A DNA stretch of 64,000 nucleotides from Candidatus Sulfopaludibacter sp. SbA3. Lineage in GTDB: Bacteria > Acidobacteriota > Vicinamibacteria > Vicinamibacterales > UBA2999. Where the stretch lies: the NCBI GenBank assembly GCA_945903265.1, contig CAMDNQ010000009.1:75664-139663 (forward strand), written 5' to 3'. Made by a program: the position numbers and the translations under genes. Below are positions 5,542 to 24,873 of this stretch, in pieces. A model generated the notes under the pieces. It ran no database searches, had not been told where the DNA came from, and was given only the letters and a program-made list of their open reading frames with translations. Positions within the stretch are counted from its first letter, which is position 1. The number at the start of each line of letters is the position of its first letter.

Positions 5542-7260
5542 TCAACTGCCGGTCGCCCTCGCCAGCGCGCCAGCCTTCTGTTCGTCCAGGACGAACGGGC
5601 GGCGCTCGAGGATACCGTTGCAGATTGTATCCAAGCCGCGGGAGGCTCCCGGCCGCAGCTCCTCGAGCCCCCGCAGCCGCAGCCGGTAGATCGGGAACCC
5701 CGCCCTCGGCTCGACGAACGGAAGCGGAATCATGCGGTTGAAGAAGAAGTGGTACGCGTAGCGCCGGGCGCGCGCCAGATGTGACCCCGTCAGTCGATCC
5801 GCAAACGGCAGCCGGCCGAGAATCTCGAAGTATTCCGCCGGCGTGCTCGCGTCGTACGTCAGCCCCTTGTTGCGAATCCAGGCTTCGCCCGCCACGATGA
5901 CCGGCACACCGACGCTGGTCAGCTCGACCCCCGTCTTGGTGCCGTAGATGATTGCGGCGTTGCAGAGCGACATCAGCGTGTAGGTGCTCATGTCGCTGTC
6001 AGGCGGGACCACGACGATGTTGGGAGGCAGCTGCGGGAGCCGCTTGCGCAGCTCGGCCAGCACCGGCTGGCGCGACTGGGGGAACCCGCTGATCTCCGCC
6101 GGATGGACGCGGATCAGCAGCTGCAGATCGGGGCGCGTCGCGAAGTACTCGCACGTGCGCACCAGCCACTCCACCATGTTCGGAAACGCGTTGGCGGGAT
6201 AGTGCAGCTGGGCATCCCACGTAACGTTGGTCAGCAGCCCGATGACGGGGCGCGCCGGATCCAGCCGGAGACGCCTCGCGGTCTCCGCCGCATCTGTCCG
6301 TTGCGGCCGGTGAAACACAATCCAGTCAAAGAGACCATCGCGGCGGCTGGCGAGATAGCGGCCCAGGGCGGCATCCTCGGCGGGAGACAACTGCCGCTGC
6401 TCCCAGTGGTCGCGCGGCTCCGTCATCAGCGTGTGGTGGTAGGTATCGTCGTGGCTGAAGATGAACCGCCGCTTGCGGTAGGCGACGTTCCAGGCAACCA
6501 CGCGCACCTGTTCGCTGCGCGCGACCTCACCGACAATGCCCCAGGGCACGTAGATGCCGTGTGTGAAGACGGCGGCTTCGAAGCCCACGCTGCGCATCAG
6601 CCGGCGCGACACGTACGCCGTGCGCAGCGCGCCCTCGAGATACCGCCGCAGCACCGCGTCGCCCATCGGCTCCGAGTCCAGCGACCCGCTGGCGAAAAAC
6701 CGGAGCGCCCCGGCATAGGCGTGCTCGCCAATCGCGACGCCGTCGAGCGTGAACGCCTGGATCTCCGCGGCCGGCAGCGTACGCGCGGTTTCCCGAGCCG
6801 CCGCGGCGTCGTCCGGCGTGATCCAGTCGCTGTACTTGTGGACGGTGAAACCGAGCGTCCGGTACACGCGCTCGGCAGGCCACCGGCAGTCCCGGCACAG
6901 ATCGGGCGCCGGGCCGGCCGCGACAAACTGGGTGAGGTTCGGGTAGAAGGAGGCCTCGCACTCGGCGCAGGCCGGGAGCGCGGCGTCGCACAGCAGCACG
7001 TGCACGTCGGCGCCGCGAAACGTCAGCGCGGCGCCCAGCGCGCTTTCCAGGGTGACCGCGTGCGCGTAGCCCCCAATCGAACTCGCGAGGAGGACGCGCC
7101 GGCCGCCGGCCGCGGCGGTCCTCGCGTTCTGCCACATCCGCGCGTCCGCGGAAACGATCGGCTGCCAGTCGGGATAGGCGCCGAAGCGCGCGTGATACCA
7201 GCGGCGCGCCAGCCGCGTCGCGCGCCACAGCGCCGGCAGCCGGCGGATCACACGCCTCAT
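5542..7260 (-). CDS. capsule-biosynthesis KpsS/KpsC-like (Capsule_synth-type) protein; distant member of the HP-motif family of this locus
   Basis: Start ATG 7260 forms an ATGA overlap with the upstream HAD stop. Motif order LLTNVTWDAQL, then LLIRVHPAE, then IIYGTKTGVELTSVGVPVIVAGEAWIRNKGLTYD. This mirrors what I recall of E. coli KpsS (VYNDSQ / KHHPMD / INSTAG...GNALYDIKGLTY). Contains an N-terminal Cys cluster CDAALPACAEC...CRDC. Confidence 0.65.
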   Translation of the reverse strand: MRRVIRRLPALWRATRLARRWYHARFGAYPDWQPIVSADARMWQNARTAAAGGRRVLLASSIGGYAHAVTLESALGAALTFRGADVHVLLCDAALPACAECEASFYPNLTQFVAAGPAPDLCRDCRWPAERVYRTLGFTVHKYSDWITPDDAAAARETARTLPAAEIQAFTLDGVAIGEHAYAGALRFFASGSLDSEPMGDAVLRRYLEGALRTAYVSRRLMRSVGFEAAVFTHGIYVPWGIVGEVARSEQVRVVAWNVAYRKRRFIFSHDDTYHHTLMTEPRDHWEQRQLSPAEDAALGRYLASRRDGLFDWIVFHRPQRTDAAETARRLRLDPARPVIGLLTNVTWDAQLHYPANAFPNMVEWLVRTCEYFATRPDLQLLIRVHPAEISGFPQSRQPVLAELRKRLPQLPPNIVVVPPDSDMSTYTLMSLCNAAIIYGTKTGVELTSVGVPVIVAGEAWIRNKGLTYDASTPAEYFEILGRLPFADRLTGSHLARARRYAYHFFFNRMIPLPFVEPRAGFPIYRLRLRGLEELRPGASRGLDTICNGILERRPFVLDEQKAGALARATGS

Positions 7261-7976
7261 GCAGACGTCGAGTGCGCGGGGTCGCCTGGACCGGGCCGTG
7301 GGTGTCCGTCGATGAGCGCGACGAAGTCCTCCACCGGCGGCAATTCCGCGAATGCCCTCCACGGCTGGTGAGCCTGCAGTTCATCGAGCGTGTACCCGCC
7401 GGTCGCCACGGCAATCGTGCGGGCACTGATCGCATTCGCGCACTCGATATCGTGCGGGGTATCGCCGATGACGAATAGCCGCTCCTCGGCGACGGGCGCC
7501 GCGCGCTTCGCGAGTTCGAGCGCCCGGCGCGCGATCGACGATCGGTCGCCGGCGTCCTCGGCGAACGCTCCGTCGGGAAAGAACTCCGTCAGGTTGTAGT
7601 GCGCGAGCTTGGCGCGCGCGCCGCCCCGCGTGTTGCCGGTCAGCAGGTAGGAACGCACATCCGGGCGGGACCGCAGCCGCTCGAGAATCTCCCGCACGTT
7701 CGGCAGCACGCCCCCGACGCGGAGCGGCAGGCTCGCCGGCAGGAGTTCTTCGTATCGCCGGACCATCCGCTCGAGCAGATCGCCCTCGGGCCGCACCCCC
7801 ACCACGTCGAAAGTCCGGGCGGCAATCTGGTAGTCGGTCATGCCGGCGATCCGGACCTGGGTCCGCAGGTCGAAATCCTGGCCGGTCACTTCCTTCACCG
7901 AGTCATTCCAGGCGAACATCCCCGCCCGGCCCGTCGTGAGCAGCGTGCCGTCGATATCCCAGAAGAGAACGGTCAC
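7257..7976 (-). CDS. HAD-superfamily phosphatase (subfamily IA, phosphoglycolate/NANP-like)
   Basis: GTG 7976 forms a GTGA overlap with the transketolase stop. HAD motifs: I LFWDIDGTL, II LLTGNT, III/IV K...FVIGDTPHDI. The upstream 126 aa of track ORF 7257..8354 are Arg/Gly-rich and overlap the transketolase gene. Confidence 0.8.
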   Translation of the reverse strand: MTVLFWDIDGTLLTTGRAGMFAWNDSVKEVTGQDFDLRTQVRIAGMTDYQIAARTFDVVGVRPEGDLLERMVRRYEELLPASLPLRVGGVLPNVREILERLRSRPDVRSYLLTGNTRGGARAKLAHYNLTEFFPDGAFAEDAGDRSSIARRALELAKRAAPVAEERLFVIGDTPHDIECANAISARTIAVATGGYTLDELQAHQPWRAFAELPPVEDFVALIDGHPRPGPGDPAHSTSA

Positions 7977-9943
7977 GCGAGCTCCGATACCGCCCGGCCG
8001 CGCCGAGCCTGCAGGGCGGTTGTAAACGCCGCCGCGAGCGACGCGATGTCGAGACAGTGGTACTCGAGGACTTCGTCGTTCGTGCCGCATTGCGGCAGCT
8101 CGGTCACCCCGAGCGACGACACGGTCACCGCCGGGTCGAGTCCAAGCCGCGCGATGGCCGCGGCCAGCATCTGCCCCTGGCCGCCGTCCAGGTAGTGATT
8201 GTCGAGCGTCACCACCTGGCGCGCGCCGCCAATGGTGTCCTTCAGCCAGACGGAATCGACGCGATTGAGCCAGGCAAGATTGACGATCTTGATCGTGGCC
8301 CCGGCCTTGCGCTGAACGTCCTCGGCCGCGTGCCACGCGTTGGACAGCAGCCACGGCCCGTACCCGAACACGACGAGGTCGCTGCCGTCACGCACGGTCC
8401 ATCCGCGCCCGACCTGCACGCGCTGGTCTGCGGGATAGGCAAACGGCACCGGCCACTTCACGGAGACGAGACGGAGATACGCGCTCTCCGCGGCGGTCGT
8501 GACGAAGTAGTCGAACAACGCGGTGACTTCGGCTTCGAGAGCCGGTTCGGCCAGCACCAGATTCGGCACCGCGCCCAGCGCGCTGATGTCGCGCACCGAC
8601 TGGTGCGAATGTCCCGGACCGCCAGGCAGCAGGCCGGCGAGGGACCCGACGTAAATCACCTTCGAGCCTTCGCTGCACTGGTTGTAAATCTGCTCGTTGG
8701 GCCGCGCGGCCAGAAAACAGGCGAATGAATGCGCCACCGGCAGGTACGTGCGGTGGGCCATGCCGCAGGCCATCGACACCATGTCCTGCTCCGCGATGCC
8801 GCACTCGACGAACCGCTCGGGGTACTTCTCCGCGAATGGCACAAGCCCGCAGTCCTTCACCAGGTCCGCGTCGAGCACGATCAGGCGGTCGTGACGGCCG
8901 CCCTGGGCGACGAGCGCGTCGCGGTAGGCCGCGATGAGGTTCTGCGTATCGCGCGGCTCGCGCCGCGCCGGCCGGCGGCCGGTGCGGGTGGCCAGCGCGC
9001 CGAGGCCCGCCGCTTCGAAGAGCCTCTGCGCGCGTGTCAGCAGTTCGGCAGACCCGCGCGCGTATTCGTCCTCGGTTGGCGCGCCCGAGTGATACGCGTA
9101 GAGCTCGCCGGCCTTCATCGACGGCCCTTCCATGAAGGACACGCCTTTCCCCTTCACGGTGTCGGCAATGAGGATCTTCGGCCGGTCGGTGACGCCATCG
9201 AGCGCGCGGAACGCCGATGCCAGACCCGCGATGTCATGCCCGTCCACGCGCGAGACGTGCCATCCGAAGGCGCGCAGCTTGGCGTCGAGATCTCCCAGGT
9301 CGCTGACATCGGCCACCCACGTGTCCGACTGGATCTTGTTGCGGTCGACGATGACCACCAGCTCGCCGAGGCGGGCGTGCACCGCCGACGGGAGCGACTC
9401 CCAGAACTGCCCTTCCTGCAACTCGCCGTCGCCGGTCAGCACGAAGATGCGACGCGGCGCGCCCGCGAGACGATTGGCCAGCGCCATCCCCTTCGCCTTC
9501 GAAATGCCCATGCCGAGCGACCCGGTGTTCGCCTGGATGTAGGGCGTCTCGACATGCGGGTGGCCGGGAAGGCCATGCAGGCGACGCAGATGATCGAGCT
9601 TGTCTTCGGGCAGGAGGCCCAGGCCGATGAGCACCGTGTAGAGCGCCGGCGCATCGTGTCCCTTCGACGAGAAGAAAATGTCACACGCCGCCGGCCCCCG
9701 ATCGAGATCGCGGATCTCATTCAGGAAGAGCCAGCTCATGATGTCGAGCGAGCTGAAGCTGGTGCCGAGGTGGCCCGACCACGCGCGCGCAATCATGTAC
9801 AGGACGTTCACCCGCGCCAGCGCCGCGAACGCCTCCGCCGTGAGGCCGGGCGCGAGTCCGGCGGCCCTGAGGCGGCGGAATTCCTGCGCCGGGATGTAGA
9901 CGAGCTCGTCGCTCGCTACCTGATCGAGCTGTTGTTCACCCAT
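7973..9943 (-). CDS. transketolase-family ThDP enzyme (N-terminal, Pyr and C-terminal domains in one 656-aa chain)
   Basis: GHPHVETPYIQANTGSLGMGISKAKG, ThDP motif LTGDGELQEGQFWES, EQDMVSMACGMA. ATG 9943 confirmed; 28-nt overlap with the upstream gene. Confidence 0.85.
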   Translation of the reverse strand: MGEQQLDQVASDELVYIPAQEFRRLRAAGLAPGLTAEAFAALARVNVLYMIARAWSGHLGTSFSSLDIMSWLFLNEIRDLDRGPAACDIFFSSKGHDAPALYTVLIGLGLLPEDKLDHLRRLHGLPGHPHVETPYIQANTGSLGMGISKAKGMALANRLAGAPRRIFVLTGDGELQEGQFWESLPSAVHARLGELVVIVDRNKIQSDTWVADVSDLGDLDAKLRAFGWHVSRVDGHDIAGLASAFRALDGVTDRPKILIADTVKGKGVSFMEGPSMKAGELYAYHSGAPTEDEYARGSAELLTRAQRLFEAAGLGALATRTGRRPARREPRDTQNLIAAYRDALVAQGGRHDRLIVLDADLVKDCGLVPFAEKYPERFVECGIAEQDMVSMACGMAHRTYLPVAHSFACFLAARPNEQIYNQCSEGSKVIYVGSLAGLLPGGPGHSHQSVRDISALGAVPNLVLAEPALEAEVTALFDYFVTTAAESAYLRLVSVKWPVPFAYPADQRVQVGRGWTVRDGSDLVVFGYGPWLLSNAWHAAEDVQRKAGATIKIVNLAWLNRVDSVWLKDTIGGARQVVTLDNHYLDGGQGQMLAAAIARLGLDPAVTVSSLGVTELPQCGTNDEVLEYHCLDIASLAAAFTTALQARRGRAVSELA

Positions 9944-10689
9944 GGATCCTCGTACGGCGCCTGCGGCACCGGCGGCAGGGACGCGTCCCCGCCCGCCACC
10001 ACGCGCTCGGCCACCATCCAGTCATATTGGTCGTTGATATCGAACCCTTCATAGCCTTCGGTGAAAAACGGCACGATCACGTCGCCCGCGATCGTGCGGC
10101 CGTCCGCCACCACCCGCGTCCATGCCATCTCGAGTGACGCGTTCTGCACGTAGACGGGCGGCAGCGCCTGGTACGGCGTGCTGTGCCACGGCTGCCCCTT
10201 CGGCGCACCAGGCAGGAGCGGGGACATGCGATCGCCGTCCACCACCCACATCTTGCCGGGATGCTGCGCGCACTTCTCAACGGCCCGCAGCGAGTCCGCG
10301 CCCGGCTGGCTGCTGAACCGCGACCAGGCCCGGCGGATGGTCGCCGCGGTCCGGAACGGGCTGGTCGGCCGCAGCAGGCTGAAGCACTCCCACGTCCGCC
10401 CCTGGCGCTTCAGCTCCGCCAGTGTGTACTCCACCCACTCGATGTCCGGCGAGGTGTCGCCCGCGAACTGTCCCGGCCGCAGGAACGGCACCTCGGCGCC
10501 GTAATGACGGGCGAGCGCCGCAATCTCCTCTGAATCCGTCGAGACGATGACCGCGTCGAACACGCCGCTCTCGAGCGCCGGCGCGATCGTGTACGCGATC
10601 GCCGGATGCGCCCCGAGCCGCCGCACGTTCTTGCCAGGGACACGCTTGGAACCCTGGCGGGCGGGAATCAAGGCTACCGCTGTGCTCAC
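9916..10689 (-). CDS. acylneuraminate (nonulosonate/ulosonate) cytidylyltransferase family protein
   Basis: VALIPARQGSKRVPGKNVRRLGAHPAIAYTI, VIVSTDSEEIA, LLRPTSPFR (CTP_transf_3 pattern). GTG start at 10689. Confidence 0.85.
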   Translation of the reverse strand: MSTAVALIPARQGSKRVPGKNVRRLGAHPAIAYTIAPALESGVFDAVIVSTDSEEIAALARHYGAEVPFLRPGQFAGDTSPDIEWVEYTLAELKRQGRTWECFSLLRPTSPFRTAATIRRAWSRFSSQPGADSLRAVEKCAQHPGKMWVVDGDRMSPLLPGAPKGQPWHSTPYQALPPVYVQNASLEMAWTRVVADGRTIAGDVIVPFFTEGYEGFDINDQYDWMVAERVVAGGDASLPPVPQAPYEDPWVNNSSIR

Positions 10690-10705
10690 TTCTACGTTCT
10701 CGCTG

Positions 10706-10797
10706 CTCGGTTCGTGTTCACGTGCGGTTCGCCGTTCATGTTCGGCCTTCGCGTTCGACGTTCACGAACCGAACCCCGAACCTGAACACGAACCGAG
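10706..10797. repeat. long imperfect palindrome in the only large intergenic gap (15-bp perfect outer arms, GTTC/GAAC-rich interior)
   Basis: CTCGGTTCGTGTTCA (10706..10720) is the exact reverse complement of TGAACACGAACCGAG (10783..10797). An inner pair is CGGTTCG (10725..10731) / CGAACCG (10765..10771). Across the gap, eight GTTC tetramers are followed by seven GAAC tetramers. Confidence 0.6.
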
Positions 10798-10830
10798 AAG
10801 AGAGAACCCAGAAGCGTGAACGACACGGGT

Positions 10831-12306
10831 TCAGACGCCCTGTGGGTTGTGGTTGATGTAGACGGTCTTCAGGTCCGAGTAGACGTCGAGCGCCTGCGTG
10901 CCCGCCTCGCGCCACCCGTTTCCTGACTGCCGCAATCCGCCGAACGGCATGTGCGGCTCGCTGCCGTAGGTCCCGCCGTTCACGACCGCCACGCCCGACT
11001 GGATGCGGCCGATGAACGCCATCGCGCGATTGATGTTCTGCGTGTGAATCGACGCCGTCAGCCCGAACGGCGAATCGTTGGCGAGCGCGATGGCCTCTTC
11101 GAAGCCGCTGACGCGATAGAGGCACGTGATGGGACCGAACAGTTCCGCGCGCGAAATCTCGTCGTTCGGCCCGACATGCTCGATGATCGTCGGGGCCACA
11201 AAGAACCCGTCGCCGAATGCCTTGCCGGTAAGCCGGTGCCCGCCCGTGAGCACCACCGCTCCTGCAGCCTTCGCGCGATCCACCGACGCCAGCATGCCCG
11301 TCATCTGCTCGCCGTTGATCACCGGACCGTAATCGTCGGTATCCGCGGTGCCGACCTTCAGCTTCGACGCGGCGGCCACGAGCATCTGGCGGAACGCCTC
11401 GTACACCGCGTCGAACACGATGATGCGGCTGCCCGCGGCGCACCGCTGCCCGGCGTTGCTGAACGCGGAGCCCAGCGTCCACGTCACTGCGTTGGCGAGA
11501 TCCGCGTCGTCGCAGACGATGAGTGGATTCTTGCCGCCAAGTTCGAGGCACACTTTCGCGAGCCGGCGCCCGGCGGTCGCGGCAATCCACCGGCCGACTT
11601 CGCAGGAGCCCGTGAAACTGATCACGGCGACGTCCGGATGCTCGACCAGCGGCGCACCCGCCTCTTCGCCCAGGCCGTGAAGCGTGGTGTAGACACCGTC
11701 GGGGACGCCGGCCTCACGGGCGAGCACGCCGAATGCCCAGGCGGAAAGCGGCGTATCTTCCGAGGTCTTCAGAATCGCGGCGTTGCCGCACAGCAGCGCC
11801 GGGAACGCCTTCCAGGCGACATTGGCGATCGGGGTATTCGCAGCGATGATCAGCCCGGCGACACCGAGCGGCTGGCGAATCACCATCGCGGACTTATTGG
11901 GCACCGCGCTCGTCGTCGTCTGGCCGTAGAACCGGCGGCCCTCGCCGGCGACGAAGAATCCCATCTCGATGGCGGCGTCGGTTTCGCCGAGGGCGTCCTT
12001 GCGCGACTTGCCCGTTTCCAGCGCGACGAGCTCCGCGATGGCGCTGCGGTGCTCGCGCATCAGAAGCGCGATCTGACGCAGGATATCGCCCCGCTTCACC
12101 ACGGTTGTCGCGGCCCACGCCGGCTGGGCCTTGAGCCCGGCGCTGACGGCGCGTTCGACATCCGCGGCGCCGGACCGCGCCACCTCGCAGAGCGGCGCGC
12201 CGGTGGCGGGATTGAGCTTCGAGAACGTGCGCCCATCCTGCGAAGGCGCGTCCTGTCCGCCGATCTGATTCAGGACCACCGCGGGAACGGCCGACAGGCT
12301 CACCAT
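10831..12306 (-). CDS. NAD(P)+-dependent aldehyde dehydrogenase family protein
   Basis: 491 aa; ALDH signatures LELGGKNP (catalytic Glu), FSNAGQRCAAGSR (catalytic Cys), EPHMPFGG. Confidence 0.9.
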   Translation of the reverse strand: MVSLSAVPAVVLNQIGGQDAPSQDGRTFSKLNPATGAPLCEVARSGAADVERAVSAGLKAQPAWAATTVVKRGDILRQIALLMREHRSAIAELVALETGKSRKDALGETDAAIEMGFFVAGEGRRFYGQTTTSAVPNKSAMVIRQPLGVAGLIIAANTPIANVAWKAFPALLCGNAAILKTSEDTPLSAWAFGVLAREAGVPDGVYTTLHGLGEEAGAPLVEHPDVAVISFTGSCEVGRWIAATAGRRLAKVCLELGGKNPLIVCDDADLANAVTWTLGSAFSNAGQRCAAGSRIIVFDAVYEAFRQMLVAAASKLKVGTADTDDYGPVINGEQMTGMLASVDRAKAAGAVVLTGGHRLTGKAFGDGFFVAPTIIEHVGPNDEISRAELFGPITCLYRVSGFEEAIALANDSPFGLTASIHTQNINRAMAFIGRIQSGVAVVNGGTYGSEPHMPFGGLRQSGNGWREAGTQALDVYSDLKTVYINHNPQGV

Positions 12307-13112
12307 GCCGTAAACCCGCCGTCGACACGCAGCTCGTGGCCGGTCACATACGTCGAGGCATCCGAGGCGAGGAACACGAGGGGCCCTTTCAGATCCGCCG
12401 CCTGGGCCATGCGGCCCAGCGGAACGCGTGCCGAATACTTCGTCTTGAACGACTCGTCCTGCCCGGCGAGCACGCCGCCGGGCGAGAGCGTGTTGACGCG
12501 CACACCGGATGGTCCCCAGAGGGTTGCAAAGTATTTCGCCAGATTGACCACGGCCGCTTTCGAGGCGCCGTACGCCGGCGATTTCAGGAACGGAAGGTCG
12601 CCGGCAAGGTGATCGTAGAACCGCTGATCGGGCGACACCGACGCATACAGCGACCCGATGTTGATAATGGACCCGCGCGACGCGTCAACCATCCGCTGAC
12701 CCGCAATCTGCGTCACCTGGAACGTGCCGAGCAGATTCACTTCCACCATCCGGCGAAACTGCTCGATTGGCAGGTCGTCGATCCGCGACCGGTTGCCACC
12801 GGAGTCGGGCGGCTGGTCGACGCCAGCGTTATTCACGAGAATCGCCGGTTCGCCAAACTGGCGGACCAGGGCCTCAACCGCCGCTTCGATGGAGGCTCGC
12901 TGCGTCACGTCGCAGTCGAAGCGCCGCAGCCGGTCGCCCGCGCGGCTGGCGAGCGCGGTAAACGCCGGCGAGGGTGCGGCTCCCGGAAGGTCGAGGGCCG
13001 CCACCGTTGCGCCCGCGTCGAGCAAGGCCTCCGCCCAGATGGGACCGAGCTTCCCGGTCGCCCCGGTCACCACCGCGGTACGGCCGTCGAGTTGGAACAG
13101 CGGCTGGCTCAC
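12300..13112 (-). CDS. short-chain dehydrogenase/reductase (classical SDR)
   Basis: TAVVTGATGKLG cofactor loop, NNAG, SLYASVSP...YGASKAA (YxxxK). Confidence 0.9.
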   Translation of the reverse strand: MSQPLFQLDGRTAVVTGATGKLGPIWAEALLDAGATVAALDLPGAAPSPAFTALASRAGDRLRRFDCDVTQRASIEAAVEALVRQFGEPAILVNNAGVDQPPDSGGNRSRIDDLPIEQFRRMVEVNLLGTFQVTQIAGQRMVDASRGSIINIGSLYASVSPDQRFYDHLAGDLPFLKSPAYGASKAAVVNLAKYFATLWGPSGVRVNTLSPGGVLAGQDESFKTKYSARVPLGRMAQAADLKGPLVFLASDASTYVTGHELRVDGGFTAW

Positions 13113-14188
13113 GAACGCGCGAAGGCCGCGCTGGCTTTGCCGCTCAGCACGTCGTAGGACAGCACGTCGTCCTCATGGAGTGCCGCGTTCGTCGTGCGGC
13201 CGATGACCGCCTCCAGTTCGTAGGGCGGAATTCCGCCGCCGGGCGACTTCATCACGATGTCGGCCGCGGTCAGGACGTGGCCGGCCGGGAGGTCGCGCGC
13301 GACCACCAGGCTCTTGCCCATCTTCACGATCGGCGCCTTCTCACTCTCGTAGATCTTCTTCACCCCGTCCCCGAGCGCCTCGTGCGTGCGCTCGAGGTCG
13401 CGAACCAACTTGCGCAGGCCGACCGGCTCGAGCGAGAACGCGTGGTCGGTCCCCTTCATGGCGCGGTTCAGCGTGAAGTGCTTCTCCACGACGCGCGCGC
13501 CGAGCACGTAGGCGGCAACCGACATAGCGATGCCGCTGTCGTGGCCCGAGAACCCGATGACGGCCCCGGGGAACTCGCGGCGGTACTGCTCGATGACGCG
13601 CAGGTCGAGTTCCTCGAACGCGGCCGGATAGCCGGCGGTGCACTGGAGAATGGCGAGCTGCGGGTTGATCGGCATGATCGTGTCGTACACGCGCCGGACG
13701 TCCTCAAACAAGGCGCCGCCGGTGGAGACGATCATCGGCTTGCCGAAGGCGGCGACGTGCTTCAGGAGCGGCAGGCTTTTCACATCGCCCGACGCAATCT
13801 TGTAGGCCGGCATGCCGATCTCTTCGAGGAAGTCGGCGCTGCGGGCGTCGAACGCGGTGGCGAAAAATTCGATGCCCAGCTCTTTCGCATACGCCTGCAG
13901 CTCGACGTACTCCTTCCGTTCGAATTCGAGGAAGGCGCGATGCTCGCCGTAGGTCGGGCCGAAGCTGTTTTCGTTGTCGTACGGCTTGTTATACGCGGCC
14001 CGCGTATACAGCCCCCGGTTGTCGCGCTTCTGGAGCTTCACCGCGTGCGCGCCGGCGAGCTTCGCCTCGTGGAACAGCTCGCGCGCTTTCTGCAGGCTCC
14101 CCTGATGGTTGTGCCCGATTTCCGCAATCACATAGCACGGGGTGCTGTCGCCGATCTCGTGCCGCCCGATGCGCATGCTGCCTGCCAT
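13109..14188 (-). CDS. nonulosonic acid (sialic-acid-type) synthase, NeuB family, resembling the animal NANS (9-phosphate-forming) subtype, with C-terminal SAF domain
   Basis: CYVIAEIGHNHQGSL, KLQKR, FGPTYGEHRAFLEFERKEY, LQCTAGYP, GFSGHDSGIAMSVAAYVLGARVVEKHFTL, KGTDHAFSLEP. ATG 14188 (MAGSMRIGRHEIG). Confidence 0.88.
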   Translation of the reverse strand: MAGSMRIGRHEIGDSTPCYVIAEIGHNHQGSLQKARELFHEAKLAGAHAVKLQKRDNRGLYTRAAYNKPYDNENSFGPTYGEHRAFLEFERKEYVELQAYAKELGIEFFATAFDARSADFLEEIGMPAYKIASGDVKSLPLLKHVAAFGKPMIVSTGGALFEDVRRVYDTIMPINPQLAILQCTAGYPAAFEELDLRVIEQYRREFPGAVIGFSGHDSGIAMSVAAYVLGARVVEKHFTLNRAMKGTDHAFSLEPVGLRKLVRDLERTHEALGDGVKKIYESEKAPIVKMGKSLVVARDLPAGHVLTAADIVMKSPGGGIPPYELEAVIGRTTNAALHEDDVLSYDVLSGKASAAFARS

Positions 14189-14205: not shown

Positions 14206-15126
14206 TTATGTCCGGACCATCGGGCGCAGCTGCGCCACGAGCTGGTCCCACCCGTATTCCTGGGCGATTTCGCGCGCCGACTGGCCGATCCGCGTCGCCT
14301 CGTCAATGCCGGGCAGGCGATCGCACCGGTTGATGTCGATGACGTTCTTCATGTGGGCGATGCCCGCGGGCGAGTGCTCATCCAGGTTCGTGATGACCGC
14401 ACAACCGCACTCCATCGCGGCGTTCACCGTGGTGTTGTTGGCGCGCAGACCTTTTTCGAAGAAGGCGGCCAGAAACGTGCAGTCCATCAGCTGGTTATAG
14501 ACGGCGGTATCCGACAGATACCCCATGAAATACACCTGGCCGTCGAAGAGCGCTTCCAGTTCCTTGAAGCGGACGACGAACGAATCGTCGAAGCTCGTGT
14601 TCTCGTGGAGCGCCGTCGACACGTAGATTGAGTACGTCTGACCGGTCGCCGCGAGCAGATCCCGAAGGCGCCGGTACAGCGGCACGCGAATCTTGTGCGC
14701 CATGCCGAAGGTGAACACCGACAGATCCGACCGCTGAAAGCGCTGCGGGTTGAGAAGCGTACCCGGGCAGAACGACTCCTGGATATCGGGCCGCAGGGGA
14801 CTCAGCTTGTGGAAGAGCTCCCGGTTCCCGCACGACACGCGCGCGGCGGCCGCCACCAGCCGGCGTTCGACCTCCGTCCCGTCGTACGCATGCAGGAACA
14901 GCTCGAAGCGGCCGCGATGCGCGGCGCTCCACATGTCCAGGTCGGCCACATCCGCCGGCGAAAATTCCGACAGCTTCAATGACAGGAGCGGCAGCCGGAA
15001 GTCGCCGAGCTCCACGGCGCGCAGGCCGACCACCGGGACCCCGAATTTCGCGGCGAGGATCTCGTTGAACTTGGCAATCCCGCACGTCCACGGGTTGAGG
15101 TGATATCCGGCGATACAGTCGATCAT
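14206..15126 (-). CDS. hypothetical protein, possibly a divergent GT-B-like transferase
   Basis: 306-aa ORF (MIDCIAGYHLNPWTCGIAKF...). The only family-like feature is the C-terminal FFEKGLRANNTTVNAAMECGCAVITN, reminiscent of the GT4 E-x-F-G...EAMA-x-G-x-PVI motif. Confidence 0.6.
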   Translation of the reverse strand: MIDCIAGYHLNPWTCGIAKFNEILAAKFGVPVVGLRAVELGDFRLPLLSLKLSEFSPADVADLDMWSAAHRGRFELFLHAYDGTEVERRLVAAAARVSCGNRELFHKLSPLRPDIQESFCPGTLLNPQRFQRSDLSVFTFGMAHKIRVPLYRRLRDLLAATGQTYSIYVSTALHENTSFDDSFVVRFKELEALFDGQVYFMGYLSDTAVYNQLMDCTFLAAFFEKGLRANNTTVNAAMECGCAVITNLDEHSPAGIAHMKNVIDINRCDRLPGIDEATRIGQSAREIAQEYGWDQLVAQLRPMVRT

Positions 15127-16159: not shown

Positions 16160-17316
16160 TCGGCCCCCGAGCAGATCTCCCGCAGCGCGGCCATTACGGC
16201 GTCCTGGTCGGCATCAGTCATCTCGGCGTACAGCGGCAGCGCCACGCCGTGGTCCTGAATCGCTTCGGAGGTCGCGAGCGTGCCGGCTGCGCGCCAGGTG
16301 CCGTCCGGGTACGACGGCTCGCGATGCGCGCACATCACGCCGCGGCGGGTGGGGATGCCCCGGTCCAGCAGGCGCTGCATCACCATCCGCTGATCGAGCC
16401 GCTTGTCCAGGACGACCGCGTAGGTCTGCCAGTTACTGCGGGCGAAATCGCGCTCCGCAGGGAGATGAATCGCACCGCAGCCGAGAAGACCCTCGCGATA
16501 GCGTGCGGCGAGAGCGCGCCGGCGCGCGATGATCGCCGGCAGCCGCTTCAGCTGCTCACGGCCGACCGCGGCCTGGATGTCGGTCATCCGGTAATTGAAC
16601 CCGAACGTGTCGTAGGACTCGAAGATGACCTGCGGCGCAGCGTGCCGGACGGTATCCGGCACACTCATGCCGTGCTGGCGGAGCCTGCGGAACCCGGCAT
16701 CCAGCTCCGCGCTGCCCGTCGTCAGCATGCCGCCGTCACCTGTTGTCAGCACCTTGCGCGGGTGAAAGGAAAAACAGGCGACATCTCCGTGCGGCCGGCC
16801 GATCCGTGCCCAGGCACCGCCAACCTGGATCTCGCTTCCAATAGCGCAGGCGGCGTCTTCGACGAGCGGGAGGGAACGGCGGCGGGCGAACGCGCCGAGC
16901 GCGGCGAGATCGCACGGCATGCCGAGCTGGTGGACGCAGAGGATCGCACGTGTCCGCGGTCCGGCCGCGGCCTCGAGCTGGTTCGGATCGATGTTGTAGG
17001 TATCCGGCTCGACGTCGACAAACACCGGAAGCGCGCCGCAATAACGAACCGCATTCGCGGTCGCGATGAATGAGTGGCTGACGGTGATGACTTCGTCGGC
17101 GGGCCCCACGCCAACCGCGAGCAGCGCCAGATGGAGCGCCGCTGTGGCGCTCGACACGGCGCACGCGAATTCGGCGCCGACAGCAGCGGCGAACTCGCGC
17201 TCGAACGCCGCAACCTCCGGGCCCTGGCTGACCCAGCCGGACAGGATCGCCCGGCGGGCGGCTTCCACTTCAGGCTCGCCGAGACTGGGACGCGCGAATG
17301 GAATCGCGCGCTTCAT
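16156..17316 (-). CDS. DegT/DnrJ/EryC1/StrS-family PLP-dependent sugar aminotransferase
   Basis: IPFARPSLGEPEVEAARRAILSGWVSQGPEVAAFE, SSATAALHLAL, FSFHPRKVLTTGDGGM (PLP lysine region). Confidence 0.9.
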   Translation of the reverse strand: MKRAIPFARPSLGEPEVEAARRAILSGWVSQGPEVAAFEREFAAAVGAEFACAVSSATAALHLALLAVGVGPADEVITVSHSFIATANAVRYCGALPVFVDVEPDTYNIDPNQLEAAAGPRTRAILCVHQLGMPCDLAALGAFARRRSLPLVEDAACAIGSEIQVGGAWARIGRPHGDVACFSFHPRKVLTTGDGGMLTTGSAELDAGFRRLRQHGMSVPDTVRHAAPQVIFESYDTFGFNYRMTDIQAAVGREQLKRLPAIIARRRALAARYREGLLGCGAIHLPAERDFARSNWQTYAVVLDKRLDQRMVMQRLLDRGIPTRRGVMCAHREPSYPDGTWRAAGTLATSEAIQDHGVALPLYAEMTDADQDAVMAALREICSGAD

Positions 17317-18317
17317 TGCGGTTGCGGAACCGTCCAGTTGCGAACGACCTCATCCTCGAGAAGGGTGTCGGGGTCGACGGCGAGCGATGTGTACCAGGCC
17401 ATCAACCGTCGTACGCCGTCTTCGAGCGTCACGCGCGGACGATAGTCCAGGAGTCCCGCCGCGCGTGTGACGTCGGCGCACAGGCGCAGGATGTCCCCGG
17501 GTCTCATCACGTCATGCTCGACGGTCACCGGCCGTCCTGCGACCCGGGCAATCGTCGCAGCGAGATCGTTAATCGCGATCTCGGCGCCGCTACCCAGATT
17601 GATCGTTTCCCCCGGCGTGCGGTCGTGCTCGCCCGCCTTGAGAATGCCGCCAGCCGTGTCGCTGACGTAGGTGAAGTCCCGCGTCTGCGATCCATCGCCA
17701 AAGACGATGAGCGGGCGTCCCGCAAGCGTCCGCAGCAGGAACTTCGGAATCACTTCTCCGCTGTCGCCCTCGTGATGGCTGCGCGGACCGTACGTGTTGA
17801 ACGGACGCACGACCACGGTCGGATAGCCGTACGTACGGTAATAGGCACGAGTGTAGGATTCGCCGGCCAGCTTCGAGGCGCCGTATACAGTGCACGGGCT
17901 CGTGGGATGGTCCTCCGTCATCGGCACCCATCGGGCGGTCCCATAAACCTCAGAACTGGAGACGTAGACGAATCTGGGTACACCCGCGGCGCGGCAGACC
18001 TCGAGCAGCCGCAGAGTCGCCGTGGCGTTGACCTCGTGATTTTCCTGGGGCGCATGAATCGAGTGCCGTACGCCGAGACACGCCAGGTGGAACACGATCC
18101 GCACGCGCGGCAGGATCGCAGCGAGACGCCCGGTGTCGCGGATATCCGTGGTGTCGAGGGCGACGCGGTCCCCGAGGATGTCATCGACGTTCTCGCGACG
18201 CCCGTTCACCAGCGTATCGACGATGACGACGCGGTCGCCGCGCGCGTGCAGCTGGCGGACGAGCTCCGAGCCGATGAATCCGGCCCCGCCGGTCACGAGC
18301 ACTACGCTTCTATCCAC
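17313..18317 (-). CDS. extended-SDR NAD-dependent sugar-nucleotide epimerase/dehydratase
   Basis: VLVTGGAGFIGSELVRQL, SSSEVYG, YGASKLAGE (YxxxK), RPFNTYGP. Confidence 0.9.
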   Translation of the reverse strand: MDRSVVLVTGGAGFIGSELVRQLHARGDRVVIVDTLVNGRRENVDDILGDRVALDTTDIRDTGRLAAILPRVRIVFHLACLGVRHSIHAPQENHEVNATATLRLLEVCRAAGVPRFVYVSSSEVYGTARWVPMTEDHPTSPCTVYGASKLAGESYTRAYYRTYGYPTVVVRPFNTYGPRSHHEGDSGEVIPKFLLRTLAGRPLIVFGDGSQTRDFTYVSDTAGGILKAGEHDRTPGETINLGSGAEIAINDLAATIARVAGRPVTVEHDVMRPGDILRLCADVTRAAGLLDYRPRVTLEDGVRRLMAWYTSLAVDPDTLLEDEVVRNWTVPQPQ

Positions 18318-22273: not shown

Positions 22274-22713
22274 CGCTGATTCTGTTGGCTCGCAAAGTGT
22301 TCGAGCAGGCGGGTCGACGAGTCGACCACCGTGTCCAGATACACGATCTCGGTCCCGTACTGCTGGCAGATTTGCACCTGCTCTGCCGGGAGACGGTTCC
22401 GCCAGTCCTGCCCCTTGATGTAATAGCGCGGCTGGAGCTCGCGCAGAGTTGTTTCGGTGTCGACGACATAGAGATGCGTATAGGTGATGTACCGGATGGC
22501 ATCGACGACGGCCACGCGATGCGCTGCGGGGAGCAGCGGGGGATGCTTGGTCCGTACGTACGCGTCCGACGCCACGTTACACAGGAGCGGCACGCCGAGC
22601 TCCGCCGCCGCGCGGAAATACTCGATATGCCCCTGATGCAGCGGGTCGAACGCCCCGTCCACCATTCCGACGCGGCCGCGGTACTCCTTGAGCTCGTCGA
22701 ACAGGACGACCAC
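22270..22713 (-). CDS. cytidylyl/adenylyl-transferase of the HxGH nucleotidyltransferase family (TagD / RfaE-domain-II-like)
   Basis: 147 aa; VGMVDGAFDPLHQGHIEYF (HxGH motif). Size fits glycerol-3-P cytidylyltransferase-type enzymes. Confidence 0.8.
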   Translation of the reverse strand: MVVLFDELKEYRGRVGMVDGAFDPLHQGHIEYFRAAAELGVPLLCNVASDAYVRTKHPPLLPAAHRVAVVDAIRYITYTHLYVVDTETTLRELQPRYYIKGQDWRNRLPAEQVQICQQYGTEIVYLDTVVDSSTRLLEHFASQQNQR

Positions 22714-23849
22714 TACCGGACCAGCAGCCCTTTCTCGCTCAGTTCATTGAGAGCGCGGTCGAAGAAATCCTCCGCCACATCGGGCGTCGTCTTCGCCCAC
22801 TCGATGAGCTCGGTGAATCCCTGCTCGAGCGAGACCGACGGCGCGTATCCGAGCGTCGTCTGCGCGCGTGAGATGTCAGCCGTATTGTGCCGGATGTCGA
22901 ATCGCCGGCCCGTCTGGGTGATCTGCGGCTCGATATCGGAGCCGAGCAGCCGTGTCAGCAGCCGCGCGATGTCGAGAATCGTCACGGTCTCTCCGGAACC
23001 GATGTTGACCGGAAGGAAGTCGGCGCCGTTCTGCTCGATCATCAGCACCAGGCATCTGACCACATCGTGGATGGAGACGAAATCGCGAAGCTGGCCGCCG
23101 TCTTCGAACACGACCGGTTGCCGGCCGTTCAGCAAGCGGCTCAACCAGATTGCCGCAACGCCGGCGTACGGGTTACTCAGGCTCTGGCGCGGGCCATACA
23201 CATTGAAAAACCGCGGCGCCACGGCTGGAATCCCGTAGGTCTTGCCGATGAGGAGCACCATCTCCTCCTGGTGGTACTTCGTCATCGAATAGATGTTGTC
23301 GCGGTACAGCGCCTTGTCCTCTGGAGTCGGGATGGACGCCACGTGCTCACCGCAGGACGGACAGCGCTGCTCCCAGTCGCGAGCCGCGAGCGGGGCTTCG
23401 GCACGGATGCCCGGCGCGACAACGCCGTGAGTGGCGCAACGGTACGCCCCCTCGCCGTAGACGCCGATTGACGAGGCCACGACCACCTTCTGTATGTGAT
23501 GCTTCGCATTCACCAGGATGTCGAGCAGCAGCGCGGTCCCCCGCGTGTTCACGTCGACGTACCGGTCCACCTGGTACATGCTCTGGCCGACGCCGACCGC
23601 CGCCGCAAAGTGCACGACGGCATCGGCAGCCAGCATCAGCGCTTCCAGCCTGGCGCGATCACGAACGTCGCCCTGGATATACGTGGCACGCGGATTCGCG
23701 TAGGACGGCCACGTGCCGGACCGATGCACCTGCGGGTCGAGATTATCCAGGACGGTCACGCGATAGTCGCGGGCCACCAGCGCATCGACGAGATGCGAGC
23801 CGATGTAGCCGGCGCCGCCGGTGACAAGGATGTGTTGGATTTTCGTCAT
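22713..23849 (-). CDS. extended-SDR NAD-dependent epimerase/dehydratase with a Cys/His-containing insertion
   Basis: ATG 23849 (MTKIQHILVTGGAGYIGSHLVDAL), YSMTKYHQE (YxxxK), insertion YRCATHG...EQRCPSCGEH. Confidence 0.85.
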   Translation of the reverse strand: MTKIQHILVTGGAGYIGSHLVDALVARDYRVTVLDNLDPQVHRSGTWPSYANPRATYIQGDVRDRARLEALMLAADAVVHFAAAVGVGQSMYQVDRYVDVNTRGTALLLDILVNAKHHIQKVVVASSIGVYGEGAYRCATHGVVAPGIRAEAPLAARDWEQRCPSCGEHVASIPTPEDKALYRDNIYSMTKYHQEEMVLLIGKTYGIPAVAPRFFNVYGPRQSLSNPYAGVAAIWLSRLLNGRQPVVFEDGGQLRDFVSIHDVVRCLVLMIEQNGADFLPVNIGSGETVTILDIARLLTRLLGSDIEPQITQTGRRFDIRHNTADISRAQTTLGYAPSVSLEQGFTELIEWAKTTPDVAEDFFDRALNELSEKGLLVR

Positions 23850-23859
23850 GTGTCCTGCG

Positions 23860-24873
23860 TCAACGATACTTCGCCTCACCGGGCGCCTGGCGCGCGTCGA
23901 GCAGATCCGGCGTCCCCAGTGAGGCGAGCGCCGTGTGCGCCATGGTCAGGTGCGCGCGGGAGAACGCCGACGCATCAGCGTAGTACGCCGTGCACGGCAC
24001 ACCGTAAAAGGGGGCGAGGTACGAGAAACCGCCGTAAGTGCCGACGAACCTCTCCGCGTTCGCGACGATGGCGCTCTGCACCCGCAGGTTCTCCGATGGG
24101 GGCGCAATCGTGGCCGGATCGATCGACTGCCCCCCCGCCGACAGACAGGCGCCATGATCGTCGAGCGCCACGCCAGTCGTGAGCAGGATCACAGGGGCCT
24201 CCGTCGACAACTGCGCGATCACCTGCGACACGATGGCGCGGTTCTCGTCCGTCGCCGGAAAGCAGTCGTTGTAGTAAAACTTCGCGGCGATGTACCGGTC
24301 CGGCAGCGGGACTTCCCCGATCCGCCCCGGCGCCACAAGCCGCTCATAGCGCGCGTGCCGGAGTATCCACTCCTCGTCCAGATGCCGCCACCAGAATGGA
24401 TTCATCAGGTCGTACATCACCGACGGATGCAGTATGACGCTATCCCGCGGCAGCCCTTCGAGCACCTGATCGAGAAGATTGCGCTCGCGCGCCGTGACCC
24501 GCGTCTGCTTCTGTTCACCGATCTCCGCGGCGTGGTCGCGGCGCGACTGCCGGAACTCGGACGGCGAGAGATGATCGAGGACGTCTTCATAGCGGCCGGC
24601 GACAGGGGCGTACCACCCGGCCGTGCCGCCCCGCGACACGACCGTCAACCGGCCGGGAGCGACCTGGAATTCAGAGGCGAACCAGCGGATAAACGGCGCC
24701 CAGTACAGGATCTCGAAACCAACTTCGCCCATCCAGGGTCCGGCGACGATCGGTGTACCGCGTGCCGCGAGCGCGCCCAGACGCCGCCGGATCGCCGTGC
24801 CCCGGGACTGCCCGACGACAGCGGCCAAGCGGCGGCGGACCGCCGATGGAACGAACGAACGAAAGCCGCTCAC
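23860..24873 (-). CDS. uncharacterised LYW-domain protein (stand-alone copy 1 of a 4-copy paralogous domain)
   Basis: IVAGPWMGEVGFEILYWAPFIRW, VVSRGGTAGWY, ILHPSVMY, PDRYIAAKFY, ERFVGTYGGFSYLAPFYGV. The same signature occurs in 30253..31479 and in the C-terminal domains of 31476..34136 and 49104..51455. Confidence 0.75.
   Translation of the reverse strand: MSGFRSFVPSAVRRRLAAVVGQSRGTAIRRRLGALAARGTPIVAGPWMGEVGFEILYWAPFIRWFASEFQVAPGRLTVVSRGGTAGWYAPVAGRYEDVLDHLSPSEFRQSRRDHAAEIGEQKQTRVTARERNLLDQVLEGLPRDSVILHPSVMYDLMNPFWWRHLDEEWILRHARYERLVAPGRIGEVPLPDRYIAAKFYYNDCFPATDENRAIVSQVIAQLSTEAPVILLTTGVALDDHGACLSAGGQSIDPATIAPPSENLRVQSAIVANAERFVGTYGGFSYLAPFYGVPCTAYYADASAFSRAHLTMAHTALASLGTPDLLDARQAPGEAKYR

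Follow-up and report, generated by a model that had tools for sequence, protein, structure and literature searches.

Among described systems, the 2-keto-3-deoxynononic acid (Kdn) pathway of Bacteroides thetaiotaomicron consists of a Kdn-9-phosphate (Kdn-9-P) synthase, BT1714, on which itself the assay in this lineage was reportedly made, a Kdn-9-P phosphatase, BT1713, and a cytidine monophosphate (CMP)-Kdn synthetase, BT1715. Animals have the NANS-NANP pathway, and the alga Prymnesium parvum has a Kdn-9-P synthase that converts mannose 6-phosphate (Man-6-P), and not mannose (PMC6200933). Here we describe a gene cassette in a 64,000-nucleotide stretch of contig CAMDNQ010000009.1 of the acidobacterium Candidatus Sulfopaludibacter sp. 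SbA3, referred to below as the window, which is organized around a synthase that we denote NeuB*. An earlier reading of this DNA, the original prediction, took this protein for an animal-like, 9-phosphate-forming synthase paired with a haloacid dehalogenase (HAD) phosphatase. We consider it likely that NeuB* is indeed of the phosphosugar-using type, and that its product would be dephosphorylated by a phosphatase of the HAD-IA class, activated with CMP and transferred by a KpsC/S-like enzyme; both the identity of the sugar and all of the enzyme activities in this core pathway are ones that we infer.

Placement of NeuB* among the ulosonic acid synthases

The longest open reading frame of the NeuB* gene opens at a GTG (14251), but close homologues are 358–359 aa long, and the ATG at 14188, with an AGGAG box 8 nt upstream, is therefore the better fit for the start. 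The protein combines a Pfam NeuB domain (PF03102, 255 bits, residues 40–277) with a SAF, antifreeze-like domain (PF08666, residues 293–348). Its scores against the NCBIfam models TIGR03569 (NeuB_NnaB; 292.5 bits) and TIGR03586 (PseI; 235.2 bits) lie under the respective cut-offs of 399.65 and 340.25, and vertebrate NANS proteins likewise fall under the TIGR03569 cut-off with 297–317 bits. In the public record it is named simply N-acetylneuraminate synthase. The five sequence blocks quoted in the original prediction, KLQKR, FGPTYGEHRAFLEF, LQCTAGYP, GFSGHDSGIAMSVAAYVLGARVVEKHFTL and KGTDHAFSLEP, are all present in the translation.

A human NANS sequence served only as bait, and the comparisons used the database proteins that it retrieved, which are 96–97% identical to the bait and are named N-acetylneuraminate-9-phosphate synthase; full-length NANS was absent from the results of the PDB search. 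Along with vertebrate NANS, two further phosphosugar-linked comparators were included, namely the Kdn-9-P synthetase of P. parvum and a B. thetaiotaomicron-type Kdn-9-P synthase, the latter located with BT1713 as the query on a contig where a 99.4%-identical phosphatase adjoins NeuB and CMP-transferase genes. NeuB* aligns with mammalian NANS (P0126) over 333 residues with 41% identity and one gap (285 bits, E 8e-99), and is 37.6% and 34.6% identical to the P. parvum and B. thetaiotaomicron-type enzymes. The score with NANS is about twice that obtained with Neisseria NeuB (137 bits) or with NeuB2 (132 bits, 29% identity), the second NeuB protein encoded in the window, which is itself 30% (157 bits), 25.8% and 25% identical to the NANS, P. 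parvum and B. thetaiotaomicron-type enzymes, respectively. Thus, in the alignments as well as in the trees described below, the resemblance of NeuB* to NANS clearly exceeds that to bacterial NeuB, in agreement with the original prediction.

Phylogenetic trees were constructed from the three comparators, Neisseria NeuB, Bacillus subtilis SpsE, the three paralogues of the genome, 105 cluster representatives and 80 named loci. The Neisseria and SpsE sequences were taken from alignments and are slightly truncated, and the Neisseria chain is that of the R314A mutant, with position 314 being read from the motif; the careful trees omit loci L011, L082 and L083 (frameshifted or badly trimmed) and L045 (N-terminally truncated). 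Under the mixture model (IQ-TREE, LG+C20+F+G4 PMSF) we recovered a clade of 42 rows (ultrafast bootstrap 100, SH-aLRT 97), the phosphosugar clade, which unites NeuB*, NANS, the P. parvum enzyme and every phosphatase-linked locus, and leaves outside Neisseria NeuB, NeuB2, four loci from the NeuC-associated group, SpsE and, from the genome itself, the third, PseI-like paralogue. Within it the clade of NeuB* orthologues (100/99) joins the NANS clade (92/94), and the B. thetaiotaomicron-type enzyme sits beside the phosphatase-linked loci L053 and L054. Quick trees gave the same grouping.

The split is accompanied by a sequence signature that tracks it across 98 rows, apart from three sequences that are corrupted or truncated and a few variants at single residues. 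The motif following strand β2 takes the form K-x-Q-K-R (or S) in the phosphosugar clade, whereas outside it is K-x-Q-T-[HFY]. The α2-β2 loop is usually NS[FWY]GxTYGEH[RK]xxLEF inside the clade and different outside it; for the membership test we used the pattern NS[FWY]GxTYGxH[RK]xxLE[FL]. The position equivalent to Neisseria E134 is Asp or Ser inside and mostly Glu outside, and that equivalent to R314 is never Arg inside and mostly Arg outside. All of the clade states are found in NeuB*, with KLQKR, NSFGPTYGEHRAFLEF (loop NSFGxTYGEHRxxLEF), Asp at E134 and Ser at R314. Both E134D and changes of R314 have been reported in eukaryotic NanS; E134 was noted to lie near the expected phosphate of N-acetylmannosamine 6-phosphate (ManNAc-6-P), and it has been proposed that E134D might relate to the use of this substrate (PMC8208679). 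On every sequence and context feature that we checked, NeuB* groups as a member of the NANS/Kdn-9-P synthase subtype, and these features support the interpretation that it condenses phosphoenolpyruvate (PEP) with a 6-phosphorylated sugar.

Phosphatases encoded with the synthase

The phosphatase of the cassette retains intact HAD-IA core motifs (DIDGTL, LLTGNT and GDTPHD) and a cap insertion, and the gene opens with a GTG that forms a GTGA overlap with the stop of the transketolase-like gene upstream of it. The other type of phosphatase that we encountered, the capless (C0) KdsC/BT1713 type, was recognized by a length of ~160–190 aa, an FDxDGVxTD motif and homology to BT1713, none of which applies to the HAD of the window. 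A phmmer search of the PDB sequences at E <= 0.01 returned the uncharacterised Chlorobium HAD 2hcf, which is its best solved relative, and generic HADs, with no NANP entry among them; BLAST against BT1713 gave no match, and no NCBIfam cut-off is reached. Orthology to NANP or to BT1713 was rejected, since the protein has specific similarity to neither.

Phosphatases of the KdsC type adjoin the synthase in 34 of the 82 named-genome loci, usually within a few bases of the synthase stop, and 17 KdsC-like neighbours found by clustering are 28–37% identical to BT1713. Over all loci, 37 of the 73 inside the phosphosugar clade and none of the nine outside it have a phosphatase gene adjoining the synthase, and for NeuC the numbers are one of 73 inside and four of nine outside; these counts speak for phosphosugar use by the clade. 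Some loci carry a fusion of the phosphatase domain with the CMP-transferase. Immediately upstream of their synthase genes, three loci have open reading frames (ORFs) of about 400 aa (L068, 8772-9998; L072, 8664-10001; L076, 7112-8392) that match the KdsC-type hidden Markov model (HMM), and those of L068 and L076 also match CMP-transferase; they look like fused phosphatase-cytidylyltransferases, an arrangement known from some CMP-sialate synthetases. Among the 45 orthologue-clade loci, the KdsC type is found in 20 and the HAD-IA type in three, all of them Acidobacteriota-like, and the other 22 show neither. The KdsC-family HMM matched nothing in the ORFs of three HAD-IA loci (L005, L006 and L017), and a HAD-motif regular expression run over 21 phosphatase-less loci produced a single, spurious match. 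A Chloroflexota locus already of the KdsC type (L038) additionally encodes, after its transketolase-like gene, a 219-aa protein with a HAD-like DFDNT motif (10427-11086).

A survey of 301 Acidobacteriota species genomes detected a NeuB* orthologue (at least 61% identity) in 11 of them. An orthologue of the HAD-IA gene lies ~5.2 kb downstream, on the same strand, in nine of these 11 genomes; of the remaining two, one assembly is too fragmented, and the other has no HAD-IA gene there and carries a KdsC-type gene 3.8 kb from the synthase. The two kinds of phosphatase never occur together in the cassette across the 11 genomes, and their distribution in the acidobacterial cassettes is thus mutually exclusive. 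That they replace each other is the pattern expected of non-orthologous displacement at one pathway step. The pairing of NeuB* with a HAD phosphatase, as first proposed for the window alone, is in this way supported both by the recurrence of the HAD-IA gene in Acidobacteriota and by the BT1713-like phosphatases that adjoin the synthase in other phyla. No KdsC-like gene was found genome-wide at E <= 1e-5 in the source genome and three genomes of the same family; other Acidobacteriota have a KdsC-like phosphatase elsewhere in the genome. In the KdsC-less family genomes, either the 8-phosphate of 3-deoxy-D-manno-octulosonic acid (Kdo-8-P) is dephosphorylated by another enzyme, possibly the HAD-IA protein, or the usual Kdo route is lacking.

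The cassette, its predicted pathway and the alternatives

The cassette runs in the order GT-B protein, NeuB*, short-chain dehydrogenase/reductase (SDR), aldehyde dehydrogenase (ALDH), CMP-transferase, transketolase-like protein, HAD-IA phosphatase and KpsC/S-like protein (Table 1), and this order is kept in related Acidobacteria. The phosphatase and cytidylyltransferase genes are located where the original prediction put them and have the expected Pfam domains. The stop of NeuB* and the start of the SDR gene overlap as GTGA, and the only sizeable intergenic gap of the cassette (10690-10830) lies between the ALDH and CMP-transferase genes. No NeuC homologue is found in the cassette.

Table 1. 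Genes of the NeuB* cassette and of the second nonulosonate set in the window
Feature	Position	Strand	Product and matches
Small GT-B-fold glycosyltransferase-like protein	14206-15126	(-)	306 aa; AlphaFold2 (AF2) fold
NeuB*, NANS/Kdn-9-P-synthase-type (predicted phosphosugar-using) ulosonic acid synthase	13109-14188	(-)	359 aa; NeuB + SAF
Classical SDR, proposed dehydrogenase for a secondary hydroxyl group in the side chain of the ulosonate	12300-13112	(-)	270 aa; Pfam adh_short_C2
NAD(P)-dependent aldehyde dehydrogenase (ALDH)	10831-12306	(-)	491 aa; Pfam Aldedh, 497 bits
Predicted CMP-ulosonic acid synthetase	9916-10689	(-)	257 aa; Pfam PF02348 CTP_transf_3
Transketolase-like thiamine diphosphate (ThDP) enzyme with altered substrate channel	7973-9943	(-)	656 aa; all three transketolase domains
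HAD-IA (C1-cap) phosphatase, proposed ulosonate-9-phosphate phosphatase	7257-7976	(-)	239 aa; Pfam HAD, HAD_2, Hydrolase
KpsC/KpsS-like (Capsule_synth, GT107-like) putative CMP-ulosonate transferase	5542-7260	(-)	572 aa; weak Pfam PF05159
Canonical pathway, outside the cassette	24875-28718	(-)	NeuB2, NeuC-like epimerase, methyltransferase, second CMP-transferase
NeuB2	27651-28718	(-)	groups with Neisseria NeuB; KFQTH, Glu at E134
NeuC-like UDP-GlcNAc 2-epimerase	26500-27654	(-)	Pfam Epimerase_2
Second CMP-transferase	24875-25567	(-)	Pfam CTP_transf_3

The CMP-transferase of the cassette, which is co-conserved with NeuB* across phyla, scores 129 bits with the PseF model, under its cut-off, and has NeuA/CMP-N-acetylneuraminate (CMP-Neu5Ac) synthetases as its best solved relatives. 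The P. parvum CMP-Kdn synthetase is 27% identical to it (77 bits), no better a match than to the other CMP-transferase of the window (31%, 92 bits), and this comparison bears on its specificity in neither direction. No gene is linked to NeuB*-type synthases more consistently than that of the SDR, the best solved relative of which is gluconate 5-dehydrogenase (1vl8, 126 bits). Of the 45 orthologue-clade loci, 24 are tagged for the ALDH, and its top NCBIfam models are the 2,5-dioxovalerate and alpha-ketoglutarate-semialdehyde dehydrogenases, both under cut-off. An AF2 model of the KpsC/S-like protein (pLDDT 86) finds as its best fold match the beta-Kdo transferase KpsC (6mgb, E 7e-9, TM score 0.54 on the target), an enzyme that uses a CMP-ulosonate donor, and its homologues adjoin the cassette in Alphaproteobacteria, Pelagibacteraceae and others. 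The 306-aa protein has no Pfam or NCBIfam match; the top fold matches of its AF2 model (pLDDT 82) are all of the GT-B/GT4 type (among them HepE and BshA, E ~1e-8), and it is a conserved upstream neighbour of NeuB* in loci of Acidobacteriota, Rhodospirillales and Solirubrobacterales.

A core of NeuB*, SDR, ALDH, CMP-transferase and transketolase-like genes, with or without a KdsC gene, recurs in Desulfobacterota, Myxococcota, Bdellovibrionota, Gemmatimonadota, Chloroflexota (including SAR202), Alpha- and Gammaproteobacteria, Actinomycetota and Melainabacteria. The best 150 cluster representatives are all closer to NeuB* than Neisseria NeuB is, and the clade is large and mostly environmental, with the phosphosugar-type named loci spanning more than 10 phyla. 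The original prediction regarded such a route as known from animals and a few Bacteroides and as unusual in a locus of this kind. In bacteria as a whole the subtype is not rare; within the Acidobacteriota its distribution is patchy (11 of 301 species). After the cassette genes themselves, the commonest neighbour is a GDP-mannose 4,6-dehydratase-like gene, present in 16 of the 42 loci that match NeuB* at 48% identity or more; the window also holds two proteins matching the same Pfam model (17313-18317 and 22713-23879), and these neighbours may simply reflect a shared polysaccharide context. A search of the literature on transketolases with nonulosonate clusters, on nonulosonic acids of Acidobacteria and on heptulosaric acid biosynthesis found no description of the cassette.

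Elsewhere in the window, NeuB2 is accompanied by a NeuC-like epimerase and a CMP-transferase of its own, so that the two routes coexist in this genome. A third NeuB paralogue (C9:141188-141910, locus L001) lies ~1.5 kb past the right end of the window. It carries K-V-Q-T-Y together with Glu at E134 and Arg at R314 and is placed among the PseI/SpsE-like enzymes, and the region may therefore encode three different nonulosonate synthases. A fourth, weak PF03102 match in the genome (contig C1) looks from its N-terminal sequence like a DAHP synthase and not like a NeuB.

In the core pathway that we favor, NeuB* would condense PEP with a 6-phosphorylated hexose to give a nonulosonate 9-phosphate such as Kdn-9-P, and as the core cassette lacks amino-sugar genes, Man-6-P is the most economical guess for the substrate. 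The HAD-IA phosphatase at the end of the cassette, which would have replaced the KdsC/BT1713-type enzyme in this acidobacterial lineage, would then remove the 9-phosphate, the free acid would be activated by the cytidylyltransferase of the cassette, and the KpsC/KpsS-like transferase, probably together with the small GT-B protein, would add the ulosonate to a surface polymer. The original prediction envisaged a Kdn-9-P or Neu5Ac-9-P-like route. Its phosphosugar part is supported, but the end product is probably neither plain Kdn nor plain Neu5Ac, since the synthase is accompanied by the SDR, the ALDH and a modified transketolase. Rather, the cassette probably makes an acidic surface sugar that has not been described before.

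Of the cassette proteins, the transketolase-like one stands out as the most unusual. Its closest solved structure is human TKT (216 bits), and in an alignment of 19 cassette family members from several phyla, numbered as in human TKT, the catalytic histidines that hold the donor C1 hydroxyl (H37, H77, H110 and H258) and the cofactor and metal ligands (D155 and N185) are kept, as is E366, which functions in cofactor activation and is Ala in one sequence. The four residues that bind the sugar phosphate are in contrast replaced in all 19 sequences, R318 by I/V/L/Q/S/A/M, S345 by D, H416 by L/Y and R474 by S/I, and D424, which reads the acceptor C2 hydroxyl, is Pro throughout. The separate housekeeping transketolase of the same genome agrees with human TKT at all 13 functional positions checked. 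Among the 301 acidobacterial genomes, all 11 that are NeuB*-positive have an orthologue of the transketolase-like gene, as against only two of the others, and the gene is located almost exclusively beside nonulosonate genes. Locus L091 (G248:C39, 9267-15625) combines, in this order, the SDR, transketolase-like and ALDH genes with a NeuC-like epimerase and a CMP-transferase in one of these two genomes, which lacks a NeuB* orthologue and the NeuB genes of which, on other contigs, are all of the canonical type (KHQTH and KFQTL), one having the Neisseria-like KHQTH and GSGE motifs. The trio thus goes with both types of nonulosonate pathway, which speaks for the nonulosonate itself, and against a hexose phosphate, as its substrate. 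Just upstream of the trio in L091 are genes for a D-2-hydroxyacid dehydrogenase and RmlA/B/D-like proteins.

As a tentative extension of the core pathway, we suggest that the trio might remodel the tail of the dephosphorylated nonulosonate. The SDR would oxidize the C8 hydroxyl of the free side chain to give an HOCH2-CO-CHOH tail, the donor motif of transketolases, which in Kdn or Neu5Ac, read from the tail end, would have the D-threo configuration of a transketolase donor; the transketolase-like enzyme would cleave between C7 and C8, removing C8-C9, and the ALDH would oxidize the resulting C7 aldehyde. The product would be a 3-deoxy-hept-2-ulosaric acid (C7H10O8), a dicarboxylic sugar similar to 3-deoxy-D-lyxo-hept-2-ulosaric acid (Dha). 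This scheme would account for why Asp424 and the phosphate site have been lost, because the next position would be the pyranose ring oxygen and the far end would be unphosphorylated, and it would call for a phosphatase because it needs a free C9 hydroxyl. Consistent with it, gluconate 5-dehydrogenase, the nearest solved relative of the SDR, oxidizes a penultimate carbon, and the top models of the ALDH are 2-keto-acid semialdehyde dehydrogenases. It places every conserved enzyme of the cassette in one linear path. Three observations speak against the extension: the resemblances of the SDR and the ALDH are weak, generic and under family cut-offs; the scheme as proposed names no acceptor for the two-carbon unit; and three Chloroflexota loci have the synthase, KdsC, SDR, CMP-transferase and transketolase-like genes with no ALDH gene nearby. 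A slightly bolder formulation, to which we attach still less confidence, is that the cassette, in its range of more than 10 phyla, represents a new route to a CMP-activated C7 dicarboxylic ulosonic acid, a stereoisomer or relative of plant Dha.

Alternatively, the three enzymes might act upstream, building an unusual aldose 6-phosphate, or a non-sugar substituent, for NeuB* or a later enzyme. The interconversion of sugar phosphates is indeed what transketolases normally do, the linkage of the trio to NeuB* is tight, and the order of the reactions is one that we infer. However, it would be hard to reconcile with such a role that every residue binding the sugar phosphate has been lost while the housekeeping transketolase of the same genome keeps them, that the trio also stands beside NeuC-like and CMP-transferase genes in a genome with canonical NeuB only, where the precursor would be different, and that a phosphatase within the cassette suits a pathway in need of a free terminal hydroxyl. 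We regard this upstream role as unlikely, and on the first two grounds the transketolase-like enzyme as a supplier of hexose phosphate was ranked below action on the nonulosonate tail.

Less probable again is that NeuB* uses a phosphosugar but the HAD-IA protein is not its cognate phosphatase, a housekeeping phosphatase acting instead and the HAD serving another intermediate or an unrelated substrate. It is here that several points weigh against the core pathway. The proposed role of the HAD-IA protein is read from its context alone, with no specific likeness to NANP or BT1713, its best solved relative being uncharacterised and the NCBIfam cut-offs unreached; 22 of the 45 orthologous loci, about half, have no phosphatase within 10 kb, and a linked phosphatase is therefore not obligatory; and P. 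parvum, too, is without a recognisable Kdn-9-P phosphatase (PMC6200933). The link between the signature and the substrate is correlative, and the counts of phosphatase and NeuC genes adjoining the synthase are not phylogenetically independent. Against a non-cognate HAD, on the other hand, stand the strict complementarity of the HAD-IA and KdsC types in the cassettes of the 11 Acidobacteriota genomes, the translational coupling of the HAD start to the transketolase-like gene, and the four family genomes in which no KdsC-like gene was found at E <= 1e-5, and we retain the HAD-IA protein as the predicted 9-phosphate phosphatase. That NeuB* is one of the ordinary bacterial synthases of Neu5Ac, legionaminic acid or pseudaminic acid, acting on an unphosphorylated sugar, its likeness to NANS being mere ancestry and the HAD coincidental, agrees with its public annotation and with the amino-sugar genes of the large locus, but is very improbable in light of its scores below the curated NeuB and PseI cut-offs, its exclusion at 100/97 from the Neisseria NeuB/NeuC-linked and PseI-like groups, its lack of the T-[HFY] motif, E134 and R314, the complete NeuC-NeuB-CMP-transferase set already present elsewhere in the window, and the BT1713-like phosphatases beside its orthologues.

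Significance and comparison with described systems

Thousands of such genes carry the plain annotation of N-acetylneuraminate synthase in public records, and a rule that combines the signature with genomic context would separate the phosphosugar-type synthases from the canonical ones. The animal-type route is, by this measure, no oddity of Bacteroides but common in bacteria of soil, groundwater and the sea; carriers of the cassette include Vicinamibacteria, which many soil-metagenome homologues suggest to be abundant, as well as SAR202 and Pelagibacteraceae. The exchange of a KdsC-type for a HAD-IA phosphatase parallels the solution represented by NANP in animals and would constitute a clean case of non-orthologous displacement, while the co-inherited SDR, ALDH and phosphate-site-less transketolase-like enzyme point to an uncharacterised acidic surface sugar. 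The synthase-phosphatase finding is by itself of moderate import, and would gain if the transketolase-based remodelling of the tail is real: were it so, the cleavage would be the first by a transketolase known on a sialic-acid-type sugar, and the cassette would offer a candidate model of how Dha-type sugars are made, for which no biosynthetic route is yet known.

The canonical NeuC-NeuB-NeuA route is represented in the window by NeuB2, and NeuB* differs from it in having no NeuC neighbour. With Neisseria meningitidis NeuB (PDB 1xuz) it shares the fold, the catalytic Glu/Lys/Gln core and the expected condensation of PEP with an aldose, but T56 and H57 are changed to K and R, the α2-β2 loop differs, and E134 and R314 are changed to D and S. 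The transketolase-like protein, similarly, retains the three domains, the ThDP and metal ligands and the catalytic histidines of human TKT and the housekeeping transketolase, but unlike these has all four phosphate binders and the acceptor-reading Asp replaced.

Comparison with the eukaryotic systems shows an almost gapless alignment of NeuB* with animal NANS over the NeuB and SAF domains. The cassette phosphatase and NANP share a broad HAD-IA architecture, and given that no NANP match was obtained at E <= 0.01, this likeness would be convergent. Unlike the NANS-NANP pathway, the bacterial cassette lacks a GNE-type epimerase/kinase and has extra predicted tail-modifying enzymes. The P. parvum Kdn-9-P synthetase resembles NeuB* in its K-F-Q-K-R and YGDTYGAHREFLEF motifs, but lacks the C-terminal SAF domain, has Ser at the E134 position and has no linked phosphatase known.

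The Kdn locus of B. thetaiotaomicron is alike in clustering a NeuB of the phosphosugar type with a dedicated HAD phosphatase and a CMP-transferase. Its type of synthase shares the signature (K-x-x-K-R, NSFGRTYGEHRAFLEL, Asp at E134 and Ser at R314), and NeuB* orthologues of other phyla use the same KdsC-type phosphatase as B. thetaiotaomicron does. The cassette nevertheless differs from the logic of both the B. thetaiotaomicron and the animal pathways in its type of phosphatase, its added SDR, ALDH and transketolase-like enzymes and its KpsC/S-like transferase: where B. thetaiotaomicron has a capless phosphatase of the KdsC/BT1713 type, the cassette has a C1-capped HAD-IA protein; the Bacteroides locus has none of the three added enzymes; and in place of the KpsC/S-like transferase it carries a polysialyltransferase-like gene (PF07388).

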